Virus record (IMG/VR): IMGVR_UViG_2541047698_000010
Length of the DNA stretch: 15,255 nt
Reading direction: 5' to 3' (one strand)
Origin: a virus
Lineage: Duplodnaviria; Heunggongvirae; Uroviricota; Caudoviricetes
This document shows, one piece after another, positions 5,166 to 13,524 of the stretch. Numbering within the stretch: position 1 is the first letter of the stretch; every line of letters begins with the position of its first letter. The notes beneath the pieces were generated by a model. The model ran no database searches. It saw only the letters and a program-made list of their open reading frames with translations, and was not told where the DNA came from. Position numbers and translations under genes: made by a program.

Positions 5166-5840
5166 TTAGGCTTTGATTTTGTATCTTCTTGGTTTTCCTG
5201 AGAAAATCACAGTTCCAATTATAGAGCAATTACCGTTGATCTTAATGTAAGGCTCAGGCCAGTTTGGGTTTAACGCTTTGAGATAACGCTGTGTCCCATC
5301 TTCTATCAACCTTTTGAAGGTGGTTTCACCTGTATCGTGCATCAATGCAATAACGTCGTCACCGTGGCAGGCAGGTACTTCAGGATCGACAAAAATCATG
5401 TCTCCCGGGCGGTACTCATCAATCATTGAATCACCTATCACCCGCAAGATATAAGTCATTTCCCCACAGGGTACAGGGCAGGGATACGTTTCTGCTGTGC
5501 TCAAATCAACCTCAGAATATCCAACTTCTTTCCATGCTCCGGCCTGTACCCATGATATGACAGGGACTAATGTGATTTGTTTATTAGTGATTGAAACATC
5601 AGGTTTTTTTGTGATGTTCGTTGTCTGGTGTTCTTGATCGAGCCATCCGACAGGCAGGTCGAAACATTTTTCGATGTGTCGTGCCATGCTGTCACCGATA
5701 TTTTTAGTAGCACCATCTCCCATAAACCTGCTGGTCTGGGTTGGCTCGCGATCAATCATAGTGGCAAAGGAAGAATTCCCGCCAACACCATCTCTCAGTT
5801 TTCTGGCGTTAGACCGCCGGATGTCATGGATTGTTTTCAT
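5166..5840 (-). CDS. cI: cI-like prophage repressor (N-terminal HTH, C-terminal S24 LexA-type autopeptidase domain)
   Basis: 224 aa. C-terminal region has the S24 serine (..VIGDSM..) and a downstream lysine (..TFKRL..). Divergent from the cro-like gene, with palindromic operators between them. Confidence 0.9.
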   Translation of the reverse strand: MKTIHDIRRSNARKLRDGVGGNSSFATMIDREPTQTSRFMGDGATKNIGDSMARHIEKCFDLPVGWLDQEHQTTNITKKPDVSITNKQITLVPVISWVQAGAWKEVGYSEVDLSTAETYPCPVPCGEMTYILRVIGDSMIDEYRPGDMIFVDPEVPACHGDDVIALMHDTGETTFKRLIEDGTQRYLKALNPNWPEPYIKINGNCSIIGTVIFSGKPRRYKIKA

Positions 5841-5846
5841 AACGAA

Positions 5847-5925
5847 ATTAAAACCCTTGTACCGTTAAGGTACAAGTATCTTGAAGGTTCATTTCAATCA
5901 TGTAATATGTATACCGGAGGTACAT
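5847..5925. promoter_or_regulatory. Divergent pRM / pR promoters with OR operators
   Basis: OR1 TTGTA-N9-TACAA at 5857-5875 (perfect palindrome CTTGTACCGTTAAGGTACAAG). OR2 ATGTA-N9-TACAT at 5907-5925. pR is TTGAAG (5881-5886), 16 nt spacer, TAATAT (5903-5908). Candidate pRM on the minus strand (TTGTAC / TTTAAT) would start at or next to the cI ATG. Confidence 0.55.
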
Positions 5926-5930
5926 ATTGT

Positions 5931-6131
5931 ATGAAAGCGTATTGGGACTCTTTAACCAAAGAACAGCAGGGCGAGTTGGCCGGAAAAGTTGGCTCAACAC
6001 CTGGCTACTTACGGCTGGTTTTCAATGGCTATAAAAAAGCCAGTTTTGTGCTGGCTAAAAAACTTGAGCAATGCACGTCAGGTGCAATTACGAAATCTGA
6101 CTTAAGACCGGATATCTATCCGAAAGATTAG
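5931..6131 (+). CDS. cro: Cro-like HTH regulator (66 aa)
   Basis: ATG at 5931 with a GGAGG Shine-Dalgarno 10 nt upstream. Small basic protein, first gene of the rightward operon. The ORF-track start at 5628 is an upstream extension across the operator region. Confidence 0.8.
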   Translation: MKAYWDSLTKEQQGELAGKVGSTPGYLRLVFNGYKKASFVLAKKLEQCTSGAITKSDLRPDIYPKD

Positions 6132-6162
6132 CAGAACACTTTCAATTTTTAACCACAGAACG

Positions 6163-6732
6163 ATGAGGCTAATCGTGGGTAAGCATCACTGGAAAATAGA
6201 AAAACAGCCTGAGTGGTACGTGAAAGCTGTCAGAAAAACTATCGCGGCGTTGCCGAGTGGTTACGCTGAAGCGGCTGACTGGCTCGATGTAACAGAAAAC
6301 GCTTTATTCAACCGCCTTCGTGCAGATGGCGATCAGATTTTCCCGCTGGGATGGGCAATGGTTTTACAGCGTGCTGGTGGCACTCATTTCATTGCTGATG
6401 CTGTGGCGCAGTCTGCAAATGGCGTCTTTGTGTCTCTTCCTGACGTCGAGGATGTGGACAACGCCGATATTAACCAGCGTCTGCTGGAAGTCATTGAACA
6501 GATCGGCAGTTATTCAAAACAGATTCGTTCAGCAATCGAAGACGGTGTAGTGGAACCGCATGAGAAGACAGCAATTAACGACGAGCTGTATCTCTCAATT
6601 TCGAAGCTGCAGGAGCATGCAGCACTTGTCTACAAAATTTTTTGCATTTCAGAAAGTAATGACGCCCGCGAGTGTGCAGCTCCGGGCGTCGTGGCGTCGA
6701 TTGCTTCTGGTTGTGGAGAAACTAACGCATGA
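6163..6732 (+). CDS. CII-like / YdaT-family regulatory protein (tentative)
   Basis: 189-aa ORF directly after cro, in the position of cII. Family assignment is from memory of YdaT/CP76-type proteins and is not confirmed. A GTG at 6175 is an alternative start. Confidence 0.45.
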
Positions 6733-7067
6733 ACAGTTTAACAACACACTACCGTCGCTCGCAACTGATTGCGCTTCCTGTACCGGGTGGAAAAGCGAAG
6801 GTGGAATATTGCTATGCAGTGAATGTACCAGGTGACAGGGAAATTGTAACCCACAGCTTTGCAGAGTGGGCTGTGGGGGATTTCAACCGGCAGAAGGAGA
6901 CAGTCCTTTGCGACAAGTTAACCGCTGGTTCAAAGATCACTACGGAGTGCCCGTCAGAGTCATTCGTTGGGAACCGGAAACACAACGGGTTATCTACCTC
7001 CGCGAAGGCTATGAGCATGAGTGCTTCAGTCCGCTCGAACAGTTTCGTCGTAAATTCAGGGAAATAG
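6729..7067 (+). CDS. Hypothetical protein (112 aa); frame uncertain in its 3' half
   Basis: ATGA start-stop overlap with the upstream gene. Its TAG stop lies inside the GAGG Shine-Dalgarno of the O-like gene. An overlapping frame (6866-7087) encodes a more globular-looking peptide. Confidence 0.35.
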
Positions 7068-7076
7068 AGGTCGGTC

Positions 7077-8018
7077 ATGAGCACTAAATTAACCGGCTAT
7101 GTATGGGATGGTTGCGCAGCGTCAGGCATGAAATTATCCAGCGTGGCAATTATGGCCCGCCTGGCTGATTTCAGTAATGACGAAGGTGTGTGCTGGCCAT
7201 CGATTGAAACCATTGCCCGCCAGATTGGCGCGGGGATGAGTACAGTCAGAACGGCTATCGCACGGCTGGAAGCAGAAGGCTGGTTAACGCGTAAGGCGCG
7301 TCGCCAGGGTAACCGCAATGCGTCGAATGTTTATCAGCTTAACGTTGCGAAGCTTCAGGCTGCGGCATTTTCTCAACTGTCAGATTCTGACCCGTCAAAA
7401 TCTGACGCATCAAAATCTGACCCGTCAAAATTTGATGCGTCGAAATCTGGCAAAAAAGCGGGTTTTCACCCGTCAGAATCTGGCGGGGATCCGTCAGTAA
7501 AATCAAAACATGATCCGTCAGATAAAAAACCTTCTCGTCCGGACGCTTCGCAACCGGACACGCAGACGGCTGAACAGGATTTTTTAACTCGCCATCCTGA
7601 TGCGGTTGTATTCAGCCCTAAAAAGCGCCAGTGGGGGACGCAGGATGATTTGACCTGCGCACAGTGGCTCTGGAAAAAAATCATCGCCCTGTACGAGCAG
7701 GCTGCCGAATGTGACGGCGAGGTGGTTCGTCCCAAAGAACCGAACTGGACAGCCTGGGCAAACGAAATTCGCCTGATGTGTGTGCAGGATGGTCGTACTC
7801 ACAAACAAATCTGCGAGATGTACAGCCGCGTCAGCCGCGATCCGTTCTGGTGCCGTAACGTGCTCAGCCCGTCGAAGCTGCGGGAAAAATGGGATGAGCT
7901 TTCCCTGCGCTTATCGCCGTCCGTAAGCACGTACACCGAAAAACGCGAAGACGCGTACTTCAAAGCCAGTTACGACAACGTGGACTACAGCCAGATCCCG
8001 GCAGGATTCAGGGGGTAA
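7077..8018 (+). CDS. Replication initiator, O-like (N-terminal winged-helix DNA-binding domain, repeat-encoded linker, C-terminal domain)
   Basis: 313 aa. N-terminus (..CWPSIETIARQIGAGMSTVRTAIARLEAEGWL..) is a replication-initiator winged helix. The central SDPSKSDASKSDPSKFDASKS linker is encoded by the iteron array. Confidence 0.75.
   Translation: MSTKLTGYVWDGCAASGMKLSSVAIMARLADFSNDEGVCWPSIETIARQIGAGMSTVRTAIARLEAEGWLTRKARRQGNRNASNVYQLNVAKLQAAAFSQLSDSDPSKSDASKSDPSKFDASKSGKKAGFHPSESGGDPSVKSKHDPSDKKPSRPDASQPDTQTAEQDFLTRHPDAVVFSPKKRQWGTQDDLTCAQWLWKKIIALYEQAAECDGEVVRPKEPNWTAWANEIRLMCVQDGRTHKQICEMYSRVSRDPFWCRNVLSPSKLREKWDELSLRLSPSVSTYTEKREDAYFKASYDNVDYSQIPAGFRG
7386..7450. repeat. Iteron-like tandem repeats (about 15-bp period, four to five copies) inside the O-like gene; candidate origin of replication
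   Basis: tctgacccgtcaaaa / tctgacgcatcaaaa / tctgacccgtcaaaa / tttgatgcgtcgaaa at 7386-7445. Further CCGTCAG copies and an A-rich stretch extend to about 7530. Confidence 0.55.
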
Positions 8019-8020
8019 TC

Positions 8021-8509
8021 ATGAGTCTTTTGAATGAAGTTCAGAAATTCATTGAAGCCCATCCGGGGTGTACTTCCGGAGACATTGCGGATGCTTTTGC
8101 AGGCTACTCACGGCAGCGCGTTCTGCAGTCAGCAAGCAAGTTACGTCAGAGTGGGCGTGTGGCTCACCGTTGTGAAGGGGATACACGCAGACATTTCCCG
8201 CGCCTGACTGAGAGAGCGCAGGAGCCGGAACCACAACCAGTTCGTGAAACCAGACCTGCGCGCAATTTCTATGTCGGCACTAACGATCCACGGGTAATTT
8301 TGTGCCTGACCCGCCAGGCTGAAGAACTGGAGTCCAGGGGCTTATACCGTCGTGCTGCAACCGTGTGGATGGCGGCATTCCGTGAAAGCCACTCCCAACC
8401 AGAACGAAACAATTTTCTGGCGCGTCGTGAGCGGTGTTTACGGAAAAGCAGCAAGCGCGCTGCATCGGGTGAAGAGTGGTATCTGTCAGGGAATTACGTG
8501 GGGGCTTAA
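8021..8509 (+). CDS. Hypothetical protein (162 aa), replication-module associated
   Basis: ATG at 8021 after a GGGGG Shine-Dalgarno, immediately downstream of the O-like gene. Stop overlaps the methyltransferase start (TAATG). Confidence 0.55.
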   Translation: MSLLNEVQKFIEAHPGCTSGDIADAFAGYSRQRVLQSASKLRQSGRVAHRCEGDTRRHFPRLTERAQEPEPQPVRETRPARNFYVGTNDPRVILCLTRQAEELESRGLYRRAATVWMAAFRESHSQPERNNFLARRERCLRKSSKRAASGEEWYLSGNYVGA

Positions 8510-9162
8510 TGAGTAATAAATATTGCCAGGCGCTGGTGGAACTGCGGAACAAACCAGCCCATGAACTGAAGGAAGTGGGCGATCAGTGGCGCACGCCGGA
8601 CAACATTTTCTGGGGAATTAACACCCTGTTTGGCCCGTTTGTTCTGGATCTGTTCACTGACGGTGATAACACCAAATGTGCTGCGTATTACACGGCGGAA
8701 GACAACGCGCTGGCGCATGACTGGTCAGAACGTCTTGCGGAGCTTAAAGGTGCTGCCTTTGGTAATCCCCCATACAGCCGCGCCAGTCAGCATGAGGGGC
8801 AATACATCACAGGCATGCGTTACATCATGAAGCATGCCAGTGCCATGCGTGATAAAGGTGGGCGCTATGTTTTCCTGATCAAAGCTGCCACCAGCGAAGT
8901 GTGGTGGCCGGAAGATGCAGATCATATTGCTTTTATTCGCGGGCGTATTGGTTTTGAACTGCCTGCCTGGTTTATCCCGAAAGATGAGAAGCAGGTGCCG
9001 ACAGGCGCTTTCTTCGCTGGTGCTATTGCTGTTTTCGACAAGACCTGGAAGGGACCGGCAATCAGCTACATCGGGCGCGATGAACTTGAGGCATGTGGTG
9101 AGGCGTTTCTGGCGCAGGTTCGCCAGCAGGCGGAAAAACTGGTCAGGGAGATGGCGGCATGA
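8509..9162 (+). CDS. Phage-type DNA N6-adenine methyltransferase (Dam family)
   Basis: 217 aa from the ATG at 8509. Motif IV ..FGNPPYS.. is characteristic of N6-adenine methyltransferases. The ORF-track GTG start at 8476 overlaps the upstream gene. Confidence 0.8.
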   Translation: MSNKYCQALVELRNKPAHELKEVGDQWRTPDNIFWGINTLFGPFVLDLFTDGDNTKCAAYYTAEDNALAHDWSERLAELKGAAFGNPPYSRASQHEGQYITGMRYIMKHASAMRDKGGRYVFLIKAATSEVWWPEDADHIAFIRGRIGFELPAWFIPKDEKQVPTGAFFAGAIAVFDKTWKGPAISYIGRDELEACGEAFLAQVRQQAEKLVREMAA

Positions 9163-9485
9163 CGACGTTAACTCAATGCCAGCAGCAGGTGCTGGATATG
9201 CTGATTTCTTATCAGAAAGAACGTGGCTTCCCGCCAACCAATCAGGAGGTGGCAACCATGCTGGGATACCGTTCAGTGAATGCAGCGGTGGAGCATCTTC
9301 GCGCACTGGAGAAAAAAGGCGTCATCACGATAAAGCGTGGTGTGGCCCGGGGGATCACGCTTCATACCGTGGTGAAGGACGACGACAGCGAGGCGGTCGG
9401 GATTATCCGCTCACTGCTTGCCGGTGAGGAAAACGCCAGGCTGCGTGCAGCCCACTGGTTACATGAGAGGGGCCTGAAAGTATGA
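9159..9485 (+). CDS. LexA DNA-binding-domain-only protein (108 aa; no S24 peptidase domain)
   Basis: Residues 5-68 align with the LexA N-terminal domain (LT..QQ.V.D.I......G.PPT..E.A..LG.RS.NAA.EHL.AL..KGVI.I..G..RGI.L). The recognition-helix region SVNAAVEHLRAL is conserved. The protein ends about 40 aa later. Confidence 0.7.
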   Translation: MTTLTQCQQQVLDMLISYQKERGFPPTNQEVATMLGYRSVNAAVEHLRALEKKGVITIKRGVARGITLHTVVKDDDSEAVGIIRSLLAGEENARLRAAHWLHERGLKV

Positions 9486-9877
9486 AGCTGATCCTACCTT
9501 TTCCGCCCAGCGTGAACACGTACTGGCGACACCCCAACAAAGGGGCGTTTGCTGGTAAGAGCCTGATAAGCGCGGCGGGGCGAAAATTCCAGAGCGCGGC
9601 GTGTGCAGCAATAGTTGAGCAGTTACGTCGTCTGCCGAAACCAACGTCGGCACCTGCTTCAGTGGAGATCGTGTTGTTTCCTCCGGATAACCGGATCCGC
9701 GATCTGGACAACTATAACAAGGCGCTGTTTGACGCCCTGACCCACGCGGGTGTGTGGGAAGACGACAGTCAGGTGAAAAGAATGCTGGTGGAGTGGGGAC
9801 CGGTTATCCCGGAGGGGAAGGTCGAGATCACTATCAGTAAGTACGAAAAAGCGAGTTGCAAATTAGCAACTCGGTAA
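9482..9877 (+). CDS. rusA: RusA-family Holliday-junction resolvase
   Basis: 131 aa with the LPFPPSVNTYW motif and an acidic DLDNYNKALFDAL segment. ATGA coupling with the upstream gene. Confidence 0.8.
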   Translation: MKLILPFPPSVNTYWRHPNKGAFAGKSLISAAGRKFQSAACAAIVEQLRRLPKPTSAPASVEIVLFPPDNRIRDLDNYNKALFDALTHAGVWEDDSQVKRMLVEWGPVIPEGKVEITISKYEKASCKLATR

Positions 9878-9922
9878 CGGAATTGAGCAACACCCTAAAT
9901 TTGGGTATTACCTCGTTAAAGA

Positions 9923-9942
9923 TACTGTATTTATGAACAGTG
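9923..9942. promoter_or_regulatory. SOS box (LexA operator) in the rusA / KilA-N intergenic region
   Basis: TACTGTATTTATGAACAGTG has the CTGT-N8-ACAG core and matches 16 of 20 positions of TACTGTATATATATACAGTA. A candidate promoter (TTGAGC 9883-9888, 17 nt, TATTAC 9906-9911) lies just upstream. Confidence 0.55.
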
Positions 9943-10039
9943 TATCCTTGATAACTATTAAAAATCGCAGTAAGTTCATCCTGCATCAACGAAAAGGGAG
10001 TGCAGTCCCGCTCGTGGATAAAAATTTGTGGAGAAACCA

Positions 10040-10855
10040 ATGAATCAGTTGCTTGTAATTGATGGCGTTTCTGTGCGCCAGTACTTCGAATCTAACTACT
10101 GTCTTAACGACCTTCAGAAAGCAGCTCTTCTTGCCGCTGGTGAGAATCGCTCCTCCCGTTCGCTGGAAGTTCACGAGTTTATGCGTCGTCCTGAAACGAA
10201 GGCTCTTGTGGAATTATTGGAAGAAGAAACTACGGGAGATTCCCGTAGTATTCCTGTCATCACCATTCAGGGGCGCAATGGTGGGACGTATGTCTGTAAA
10301 GAGCTGGTCTATGCATATGCAATGTGGATCAGCCCGGCATTCAGCTTAAAAGTGATACGTACTTTTGATGCGCTTCATAATTCATCACCAGAAGAAACCA
10401 CATCCGACAAAATTAAATCCGGGGTCATTCTGCTTGAATCAGCAGCAAAGACTCTAAATCTGTCAAACTCCTCGAAACTTGGTGCATACCAGAAATTATC
10501 AAAGGTAGCTGGTCTTCCTGAACTTATGCCGATCTATGCCATTGATGCACCTGCTGATGCGCCAGATGGTTCAAGCCGCCCTACGCTGTCGCTGAGTGCA
10601 CTGCTGAAGCAGTATGGTATCCGCCTGACGGCTAATCAGGCATATCACCAGATGGCGAAGCTGGGGATCGTTGAACAACGCGAACGATACAGCCGTACCG
10701 CGATTAACAACATCAAAAAATTCTGGTCGCTGACCGCGAAAGGCTGCATGTTCGGCAAGAACATCACCAGTCCTGCAAATCCGCGCGAGACGCAGCCGCA
10801 TTTCTTCGAATCCCGATTCCCTGAGCTGTTAAAGCTGCTCGATACCGTTCATTGA
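10040..10855 (+). CDS. KilA-N domain protein (antirepressor / Roi-like)
   Basis: N-terminal 110 aa (..VIDGVSVRQYFESNYCLNDLQKAA.. ..IPVITIQGRNGGTYVCKELVYAYAMWISPAF..) resemble a KilA-N domain. ATG at 10040 with GGAG 6 nt upstream. The ORF-track GTG at 10028 is less likely. Confidence 0.7.
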   Translation: MNQLLVIDGVSVRQYFESNYCLNDLQKAALLAAGENRSSRSLEVHEFMRRPETKALVELLEEETTGDSRSIPVITIQGRNGGTYVCKELVYAYAMWISPAFSLKVIRTFDALHNSSPEETTSDKIKSGVILLESAAKTLNLSNSSKLGAYQKLSKVAGLPELMPIYAIDAPADAPDGSSRPTLSLSALLKQYGIRLTANQAYHQMAKLGIVEQRERYSRTAINNIKKFWSLTAKGCMFGKNITSPANPRETQPHFFESRFPELLKLLDTVH

Positions 10856-12303: not shown

Positions 12304-12450
12304 CAAAATAAAGGGTAATATATAACAGAAGGTTTATATAGTAAGAAGCAAGGTAGTGCTTCTAAAGGAAGTGGCTTGAGGGCTCCACTTATATGTTGCG
12401 GAGGCAAAGCCTCCCGCAACATATCTTTTTCGTAAGTCAGATTAGAACTG
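12280..12450 (-). ncRNA. ipeX: Candidate IpeX-like sRNA at the porin 3' end
   Basis: By analogy with DLP12, where IpeX spans the nmpC 3' end and intergenic region. Here there is about 170 nt between the porin stop and the minus-strand terminator. No promoter was verified. Confidence 0.3.
12395..12430 (+). terminator. Intrinsic terminator for rightward transcription leaving Q (tR'-like or insulator)
   Basis: 11-bp stem with one bulge (12395-12405 / 12409-12420), loop AAA, followed by AUAUCUUUUU on the plus strand. Not U-flanked on the minus strand. Confidence 0.5.
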
Positions 12451-13524
12451 ATAAACCAGACCTACAGCGACGATGTCGTCGGTATCAATACCAGCTGTTT
12501 TGGTAAACTTACTATCGTCAATTAAGTTGATTTTGTAATCAACAAAAGTGGACATGTTTTTATTAAAGTAGTAAGTAGCACCGACATCGACATACTTGAC
12601 TAAGTCTCGGTCACCATGAACACCAAGGTCTTTACCTTTTGACTGAAGGTAAGCAACAGATGGACGCAGACCGAAGTCAAACTGATATTGTGCTACTGCT
12701 TCAAAGTTTTGTGCTTTGTTTGCAATATGGTTATTACCAAAAACGGTCATATTCTGAGTTTCAGAATATGTGGTAGCCAGATAGATATTGTTCGCATCAT
12801 ATTTCAGGCCTGCAGCCCATACTTCCGCATTTTTGCCGGAGGCATTGAATTTGCTCTTACCATAGGCGACCTGACCGTCAGTGCGATCTGATTTAGCATA
12901 GGTTGCACCCACGCCGAATCCTTCATACTCATAAGTAGTGGAGAAACCGAAACCATCACCATTGGCTTCAGTTACGTCAGTGCGGTCATTTTTACCCTGA
13001 TACTGAGCAGCAAAGTTCAGGCCATCGACCAGACCAAAGAAGTCGTTGTTACGATAAGTTGCAACACCAGTAGTGCGACCAGTCATGAACACATCTGTTT
13101 GGGTCCAGGTATCACCACCGAATTCTGGCAGGACGTCAGTCCACGCACCGATGTCGTATGCTACACCGTAGTTACGGCCGTAATCGATTGAGCCGTAATC
13201 ACCAAATTTCAGGCCTGCAAATGCAAGACGGGTTTTGTCTTTGGAAGAACCTTGAGATTCAGCACGGTTGCCTTTGAATTCATATTCCCACTGACCGAAA
13301 CCAGTCAGTTGATCGTTGATTTGGGTTTCACCTTTGAAGCCAAGACGGGCATAAGTAGTATCACCATCATCTGCATCATTAGAGGAGAAGTAGTGCTTGG
13401 CATTAACTTTCCCGTATAGATCCAGCTTGTTACTGTCTTTATTATAAATTTCAGCTGCCTGAGCAGACATCGCCATCAGTACTGATGCAGCTACAGCAGA
13501 AATTGCCACTGTTAATTTTTTCAT
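12442..13524 (-). CDS. nmpC: OmpC/OmpF-family general porin, prophage-encoded (NmpC / Lc-like)
   Basis: 360 aa with a signal peptide ([23 protein letters not shown]), a beta-barrel pattern with alternating aromatics, and C-terminal ..VGLVYQF. Opposite strand to Q and the lysis genes, as in DLP12 and PA-2. Confidence 0.9.

Follow-up and report, generated by a model that had tools for sequence, protein, structure and literature searches.

The virus record IMGVR_UViG_2541047698_000010 (IMG/VR; Duplodnaviria; Heunggongvirae; Uroviricota; Caudoviricetes) comprises 15,255 nucleotides, here called the window, and contains at 9159..9485 on the plus strand a coding sequence (CDS; ATG start, TGA stop included) for a protein of 108 amino acids that consists of a LexA-type DNA-binding domain (DBD) and a short tail, as assigned from the list of open reading frames (ORFs), Pfam and PHROG 362. 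The protein lacks the S24 peptidase domain of LexA, it keeps most of the residues with which LexA contacts its operator, and its DBD is under strict purifying selection. Judged from its sequence, the most reasonable function of the protein would be that of a damage-insensitive binder of SOS boxes. In a more specific form, to which a little less than an even chance is given, it is proposed that a RecA-insensitive surrogate LexA would be produced from the pR operon during lytic growth and would re-close phage and host SOS boxes once cleavage has removed host LexA.

A LexA DNA-binding domain without a protease domain

Residues 1-70 (9159..9368, plus strand) form a winged helix-turn-helix (HTH) domain of the LexA type according to Pfam, AlphaFold2 (AF2) and Foldseek. 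PF01726 (LexA_DNA_bind) is matched with E=2.9e-19 and 69 bits (cutoff 23.7), residues 1-65 of the protein covering positions 1-65 of the 65 in the profile, and phmmer against the PDB retrieves the E. coli LexA DBD (1lea, 3jso) as well as full-length LexA at E ~1e-15. In BLASTP, 90 residues align to E. coli LexA at 43% identity (E=9e-22), and the LexA sequence used agrees with the PDB alignment. The NCBIfam model of full-length LexA, TIGR00498, is aligned only at positions 1-91 of 203 and with 71 bits, below its cutoff of 110.95, and no Pfam match to Peptidase_S24 is found in the 108 residues. In the AF2 model, which has a mean predicted local distance difference test (pLDDT) score of 78, three helices and a β-hairpin wing (helices 6-22, 28-35 and 40-52, strands 56-59 and 65-68) are accompanied by two additional helices. 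The best Foldseek match is a chain of the LexA-DNA complex (3jso_B; root-mean-square deviation (rmsd) 1.4 Å, 68 columns, 50% identity), and the top matches, including the nuclear magnetic resonance (NMR) domain 1lea, lie at 1.4-1.7 Å with about 50% identity over 68 columns. These results bear out a previous reading made from the letters of the window (hereafter, the sequence-only reading), which had taken the product of 9159-9485 for a LexA paralogue cut down to its DBD and had aligned its first 70 residues to the LexA N-terminal domain (NTD): Pfam, TIGR00498, the PDB and BLASTP agree, and both the profile search for LexA_DNA_bind and the superposition of a predicted model on the NTD, which that reading had suggested, gave the match and the fit of 1.4 Å (3jso_B) described here.

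The truncation is genuine and neither a frameshift nor an artefact, because the stop codon overlaps the ATG of the next gene, rusA, because RusA has a Pfam match of its own, and because hundreds of homologues have the same length (104-112 residues). Moreover, PHROG 362 is matched from end to end (E=2.4e-59, residues 1-108 of the protein against positions 1-106 of the 106 in the profile). The sequence-only reading was therefore right that the protein ends soon after the DBD, with no S24 domain and with rusA following, and equally right that it escapes RecA-stimulated self-cleavage, since a protein without the S24 domain and its Ser119/Lys156 dyad cannot cleave itself. With neither the S24 domain nor the dyad nor a conserved cleavage site, the protein falls outside the LexA family proper.

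As the alignment is gapless up to residue 69, residue numbers are common to LexA and the phage protein. In helix III of E. coli LexA, DNA is contacted by Ser39, Asn41, Ala42, Glu44 and Glu45 (PMC3091678). Four of these five contacts are kept in the recognition helix of the phage protein (residues 38-52, RSVNAAVEHLRALEK, 9270..9314, plus strand; PDB and BLASTP alignments), which reads RSVNAAVEHL where LexA has RSPNAAEEHL: S39, N41, A42 and E45 are retained, and E44 is replaced by V. The helix had thus been called conserved with good reason. Within the PHROG 362-type family, S39 and N41 are invariant and E45 is nearly so in close members; in relatives at 40-50% identity, S39 and N41 are still invariant and the contact set largely persists. 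Among E. coli and Shigella alleles, the nonsynonymous divergence (dN) is 0 over the first 70 codons at a synonymous divergence (dS) of 0.04-0.15, and every amino-acid change falls in the tail. Strict purifying selection, with dN=0 at an appreciable dS, marks the DBD as a working domain.

The tail (residues 75-103, 9381..9467, plus strand) is predicted by AF2 to form two helices, 75-87 and 93-103 (pLDDT ~88). It is specific to the phage family and absent both from LexA and from gp6 of phage GIL01, a truncated phage LexA homologue. Its hydrophobic pattern (I82, L86, L87, A93, A97, W100, L101) is conserved in relatives at 40-50% identity and is seen in homologues that share this domain layout and come from Cronobacter, Kosakonia, Enterobacter, Cedecea, Klebsiella and Salmonella. 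LexA dimerises via its C-terminal domain (PMC3159453), and the structural model suggests that the tail might be a substitute dimerisation element. Six metagenomic proteins of ~160 residues (P0132, P0149, P0152, P0155, P0161, P0165) carry two tandem LexA_DNA_bind domains and no S24 domain, an arrangement in line with the idea that DBD-only LexA derivatives would have to offer two reading heads in some way.

Together with its flanks, the gene was located 2954 times in 5426 complete E. coli genomes, 2288 of which (42%) carry it; there it is nearly always annotated as 'LexA family transcriptional regulator/protein'. The identical CDS is recorded as 'hypothetical protein similar to LexA' in PV340568 and as 'LexA family transcriptional regulator' in RefSeq (WP_000210181.1). 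Orthologues at 94-100% protein identity are present in the Stx2a, Stx2c, SfII (SfII_44), SfIV, SfV (orf42), mEp460, cdtI and phi1720a-02 phages, for which the public labels also include 'LexA DNA binding domain protein' and 'LexA-like protein', and all family members found are from Enterobacteriaceae. The gene is already annotated, extremely common and known as a database object; since public records already call it a LexA DNA-binding-domain protein, the novelty implied by the sequence-only reading was overstated. No functional study of the PHROG 362 LexA-DBD protein was found in the literature searched. The Shiga toxin (Stx) 'bully phage' phi1720a-02 (KF030445, 34760-35083) carries the LexA-DBD gene at 99% identity. 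In the phi1720a-02 preprint, the blocked induction of a co-resident prophage was attributed to Cro, and the LexA-DBD gene lay outside the tests.

Operon position and SOS boxes

The LexA-DBD gene shares the four nucleotides ATGA with each of its neighbours. Its ATG overlaps the TGA of the upstream gene for a Dam N6-adenine methyltransferase (8476..9162, plus strand; TIGR01712, E=5e-76), and at its 3' end the TGA runs into the ATG of the gene for the RusA Holliday-junction resolvase (9482..9877, plus strand; own Pfam RusA match). A Shine-Dalgarno-like AGGGAG (9145..9150, plus strand; read from the sequence) is located 8 nt upstream of the ATG, within the end of dam. A promoter consensus scan of the plus strand from 8400 to 10350 returned no promoter-like site, and the candidates picked by eye, TTGGGT-N16-TACTGT and TTGATA-N17-TAAGTT, are unconvincing (7-8 of 12 matches). 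The gene lies downstream of cI/cro and of the replication, PerC and Dam genes, and upstream of RusA-DUF968-Q. Its nin position just upstream of rusA recurs in prophages of Citrobacter (64% identity), Cronobacter (~45-51%, varying with the alignment), Enterobacter (~45%) and Cedecea/Enterobacter (~42%); adjacency to rusA is seen in most of the relatives fetched, and an extra gene lies between the two in a Cronobacter (L009) and a Cedecea (L012) locus.

The rightward operon holding the LexA-DBD gene is controlled by an S24-type cI, a ymfK-like prophage repressor (5166..5840, minus strand; Peptidase_S24 E=1.5e-26 in Pfam, and record annotation). In phage lambda, the nin genes are transcribed from pR only once cI is inactivated, and by analogy the LexA-DBD gene is most likely a delayed-early lytic gene that is silent under cI. 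Expression in lytic growth rather than in the lysogen would be expected because of the nin position, the start/stop overlaps and the lack of a promoter-like site upstream. The sequence-only reading had suggested that the protein rewires the SOS response in the lysogen. This suggestion does not sit well with a gene that lies between the replication genes and Q, overlaps dam and rusA, has no recognisable promoter and is probably expressed in the lytic phase.

The 150-bp spacer between rusA and kilA-N contains an SOS (LexA) box, TACTGTATTTATGAACAGTG (9923..9942; motif and position weight matrix (PWM)). Its core, CTGTATTTATGAACAG (9925-9940), is the sole perfect CTGT-N8-ACAG in the window, and its PWM score of 21.3 lies within the training range of 12.6-27.1 of a matrix that was built from 20 E. 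coli SOS boxes. Being a perfect motif with a score in the E. coli range, the SOS box cited by the sequence-only reading is real. It is situated 440 bp downstream of the LexA-DBD gene, its core is conserved in diverged copies, and the first gene 3' of it encodes a KilA-N domain protein (10028..10855, annotated start 10040, plus strand; Pfam KilA-N E=1.3e-15; PHROG 129), the slot of which is occupied by a pRha/ANT antirepressor-type protein in an Enterobacter relative (L010). In this phage, the box is a plausible predicted target of the LexA-DBD protein. However, it is not the general raison d'être of the gene, because the 150-bp box-bearing spacer is found in only 186 complete E. coli genomes compared to 2288 with the gene, and because in Stx2a_1447, SfII and mEp460 the rusA-kilA-N spacer measures 19 bp and contains no box. 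On the same grounds the box was ruled out as a conserved partner of the gene. Gating of this downstream box, as had been proposed earlier, consequently fails as a defining role of the protein, but may hold for this particular phage.

Strong SOS boxes (PWM score ≥16) recur at three module-specific sites in this phage group. Site A, TACTGTTTTTA[T/C]ATACAGTA, lies inside the SfII-type cI gene, in the part that encodes the linker between the domains; site B is the window box before kilA-N; and site C, TACTGTAAAAATAAACAGTG, extends across codons 3-9 of a late-region gene for an N6/N4 DNA methylase, 3' of Q. For the lysozyme-anchored sample of 80 IMG/VR loci (L099-L178), loci of ≥8 kb were counted: a strong box lies within ~10 kb in 9 of the 12 with the LexA-DBD gene vs 3 of the 59 that lack it (Fisher p=6e-7 with no correction for relatedness, the independent sites really numbering ~3), and the three boxes in the gene-negative loci are all CCCTGTAATTTTATACAGTA. 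Block-shuffled sequence contains 0-4 strong boxes per 1.22 Mb. In a DUF968-anchored sample (L019-L098), which with only 8 loci without the gene has too few negatives to be informative, p is 0.25. This pattern of boxes is suggestive of a phage-borne LexA regulon.

Individual boxes at these sites have features of their own. SfII (KC736978, L015) carries at 29167-29186 the consensus-grade box TACTGTTTTTATATACAGTA, which equals the best E. coli boxes with a PWM score of 27.1. The box in the SfII-type cI sits between the HTH and S24 domains, at the peptide SNTVYKNS; a variant, TACTGTTTTTACATACAGTA, is present in related phages, and the same cI site is found in many IMG/VR loci (e.g., at 4746-4765 in L020). 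An example of box C is located at 12377-12396 in L026, and in many phages of this group the methylase gene is placed between Q and the holin gene. The Cedecea/Enterobacter prophage (L012/L013) has an HTH-only repressor without S24 domain and SOS boxes at 5560-5579 and 10164-10183. One of them, a strong box, is found ~130 bp 5' of an ORF of 82 aa, immediately after which comes a LexA-DBD family member of 135 aa, and the other is 3' of the lysozyme gene; the LexA-DBD gene of L012/L013 may thus be part of a LexA-controlled operon, possibly together with an antirepressor.

Proposed function and its alternatives

Because the LexA-DBD gene belongs to a rightward delayed-early (nin-region) operon, in which it appears to be translationally coupled to dam and rusA, its product would be made once the S24-type cI is inactivated, and in an SOS-induced lysogen host LexA would then be destroyed too. 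As the operator-reading residues of LexA are kept, the protein would most likely bind CTGT-N8-ACAG, including the phage's own box at 9923-9942 before kilA-N and the SOS operators of the host. Activated RecA (RecA*) would be unable to inactivate it because the S24 domain is missing, and the tail would stand in for the LexA C-terminal domain in dimerisation. The net effect would be that a damage-proof surrogate LexA shuts SOS-controlled promoters again in the induced cell; candidate targets are the SOS functions of the host, phage genes with SOS boxes, and rivals under LexA control, such as colicins and the antirepressors of other prophages. The LexA proteins of Enterobacteriaceae read the same SOS box. 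In E. coli, the NTD of LexA alone still binds SOS boxes and represses, and its removal by ClpXP is needed for SOS (PMC10584840). A stable, separately encoded NTD would be expected to repress as well, because the free LexA NTD represses until it is degraded by ClpXP.

A wider version of this proposal, which is possible but rather doubtful, is that the gene-carrying lambdoid phages run a small LexA regulon consisting of sites A, B and C, in which the RecA-proof LexA-DBD protein would be the second-stage ligand of these boxes and of the host SOS operators, replacing the cleaved host LexA in lytic growth. If so, SOS-box genes would be expressed as a pulse, and host SOS and SOS-inducible competitors would be shut down, Stx-phage lysogens included.

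Several observations weigh against a surrogate LexA. No convincing σ70 promoter overlaps the window box, neither by scan nor by eye (7-8 of 12 matches). In a few relatives A42, A43 or E45 is altered, and due to these changes and to E44V in the phage protein, the specificity could differ from that of LexA. The idea of dimerisation via the tail rests on a monomer model with a predicted template modelling (pTM) score of 0.52, and the constraint on the tail is weaker than that on the DBD (tail dN/dS 0.07-1.3, few events). Approximately 25-40% of the gene-bearing E. coli-type loci have no strong box within 6-10 kb, and the same holds for three of four distant lineages, of which only Cedecea has some (≤6 kb). 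Conversely, box C is present in 80 of 80 methylase loci (L179-L258), including all 6 without the LexA-DBD gene. Since a box remains in its module even where the gene is missing, the enrichment may reflect lineage linkage, and host LexA is certainly a candidate, indeed the obvious one, for the ligand of the phage boxes. Finally, the sole characterised truncated phage LexA homologue, gp6 of GIL01, is an activator and not a repressor (PMC6182141).

The gp6 precedent, in which a truncated LexA homologue recognises a distinct motif and activates the late promoter P3 (PMC6182141), defines an unlikely alternative: the LexA-DBD protein might be a phage transcription factor that binds non-SOS sites of its own, activates or represses phage promoters timing the lytic genes, and has little effect on host SOS. 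The many gene-bearing loci without a strong SOS box nearby and the E44V replacement in the recognition helix are in line with such a factor, and so is the location of the window box just 5' of a weak candidate -35 element (TTGATA, 9948-9953), a geometry that favours an activator over a repressor. However, the LexA helix is nearly unchanged here (S39, N41, A42, E45), in contrast to VSHKTAHRYL in gp6, no pairwise similarity to gp6 is detectable, and late expression in lambdoid phages is already served by Q, which is encoded three genes downstream. A presence of the protein in the lysogen, where it would constitutively repress SOS genes or poison LexA by forming heterodimers, is improbable. The protein is uncleavable, and the box ~130 bp 5' of the preceding ORF in L012 points to at least one lineage in which expression is SOS-controlled and independent of the pR operon, but in the window the nin location, the overlapping stop and start codons and the absence of a promoter-like site 5' of the gene argue otherwise. 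Keeping SOS switched off throughout amounts to a lexA(Ind-)-like condition, which carries a cost and seems hard to square with the presence of the gene in 42% of complete E. coli genomes. Inactive heterodimers with host LexA, which the sequence-only reading had also considered, are unlikely in their classical form because LexA forms its dimer interface with the C-terminal domain (PMC3159453), which the phage protein is missing; heterodimer poisoning was dropped for this reason.

Two further explanations concern the tail and the persistence of the gene. It is very improbable that the tail is a pseudo-substrate or decoy, which would be cleaved in trans by the S24 sites of LexA, cI or UmuD or would block them. 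The HMMER/BLASTP alignment does extend to LexA residue 86, so that IIRSLLAGEE in the tail is aligned to the LexA cleavage region VGRVAAGEP and A88-G89 stands opposite the scissile A84-G85, and intermolecular cleavage by LexA and cI is documented (Kim and Little 1993, cited in PMC10584840). However, the match is weak in that stretch, the segment is predicted by AF2 to be helical with good confidence where LexA has a strand or loop, and the A-G pair is replaced within the family (AN, VG, ER, TR, DD, AC and AE are seen). Because the Ala-Gly pair varies, trans-cleavage is unlikely as a conserved property, and the idea was dropped on account of this variation and the predicted helix. That the gene is a functionless remnant, a piece of lexA that was captured, truncated and passively retained among the nin genes, is hardly credible. 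Nin regions hold many dispensable genes and no phenotype has been reported in the literature searched, but dN=0 at an appreciable dS in the DBD, the persistence of architecture and position down to 40% identity in several enterobacterial genera, and the 2954 places in 2288 E. coli genomes all speak for a function.

Source phage, significance and known systems

Between 8476 and 10900, the window is 100% identical to Escherichia phage PhiR49_1 (PV340568, host ECOR13), the window coordinate in this region being the record coordinate minus 14, and the same stretch is also identical to a prophage of E. coli ST3 beside tRNA-Arg and fimZ. The window phage is lambdoid. Its genes are ordered as integrase, S24-type cI, cro-like, ymfL, ymfM, O-like replication protein, PerC/YfdN and Dam, followed by the LexA-DBD gene, RusA, KilA-N, DUF968/HNH, Q, a porin moron and lysis genes. 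The immunity region (5166-7067) is e14-like, with a ymfK-type S24 repressor, a ymfT-type cro, ymfL and ymfM. In e14, ymfM is reported as an SOS-inducible cell-division inhibitor, and the window phage may have a second SOS-linked function via ymfM. The O-like replication protein (HTH_36, 7077-8018) contains the low-complexity repeat SDPSKSDASKSDPSKFDASKS, and the porin moron is a 360-aa OmpC/OmpD-like gene on the minus strand (12442-13524) between Q and the lysis genes. At the extreme end of rusA (9851-9873), a hairpin with an 8-bp stem, CGAGTTGCAAATTAGCAACTCG, is terminator-like by scan on the minus strand only, with no minus-strand gene to its right, and is part of the block that separates the SOS-box variant from the variant with the 19-bp gap. 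Searches with the PADLOC defence models and Rfam returned no relevant match.

As it stands, the LexA-DBD gene is an ordinary, already annotated nin-region gene with a predicted function. If the proposal of a RecA-insensitive surrogate LexA is true, ~40% of sequenced E. coli strains, including many Stx2/Stx2c lysogens and lysogens of Shigella serotype-converting phages, would carry a phage factor able to re-silence the SOS regulon after prophage induction. During antibiotic-triggered induction, such a factor could affect umuDC/dinB mutagenesis and colicin release, co-resident prophages that use LexA-controlled antirepressors, and the timing of phage genes behind SOS boxes.

The closest known structure is the NTD of E. 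coli LexA (1-84 fragment), with which the phage protein shares the fold (rmsd 1.4 Å), about 50% identity over residues 1-68 and the helix contacts S39, N41, A42 and E45. In contrast to this fragment, however, the phage protein is the product of a separate gene, has no conserved Ala-Gly site and carries V in place of E44; compared to intact LexA, it has a family-specific two-helix tail instead of the C-terminal domain. It also lacks the VAA-type C-terminus, which reportedly targets LexA 1-84 to ClpXP. Among phage proteins, it belongs to the PHROG 362/RefSeq WP_000210181 family, the profile of which it matches over the full length and from which it shows no structural difference.

The expected outcome, i.e., SOS operators that stay occupied despite RecA*, is that of lexA(Ind-) alleles (G85D, S119A). 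The same outcome is expected of LexA locked by gp7 of GIL01, which keeps host LexA stably bound to DNA and prevents its cleavage (PMC6182141; PMC9700832). Unlike GIL01, the window phage would leave host LexA as it is and bring in an uncleavable binder of its own, and gp7 is unrelated to the LexA-DBD protein in sequence. Conceptually, the LexA-DBD protein stands with the phage-encoded truncated LexA homologues, of which gp6 is the only studied example. Both are phage-encoded LexA_DNA_bind domains without a protease that match PF01726, and both would be expressed in the lytic programme, gp6 as published (PMC6182141) and the window protein by prediction. They differ in that gp6 is a bare domain of 66 aa with the helix VSHKTAHRYL, which recognises a non-LexA motif and activates transcription (PMC6182141), whereas the window protein has 108 aa, a tail and a LexA-like helix and occurs in lambdoid phages of Enterobacteriaceae. 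Direct homology between the two was considered and rejected, as BLASTP gives no alignment and only the Pfam domain is shared; because nothing aligns between them, they appear to be derived independently. If it indeed acts as a surrogate LexA, the window protein would therefore be a Gram-negative, independently derived counterpart of GIL01 gp6 and gp7.

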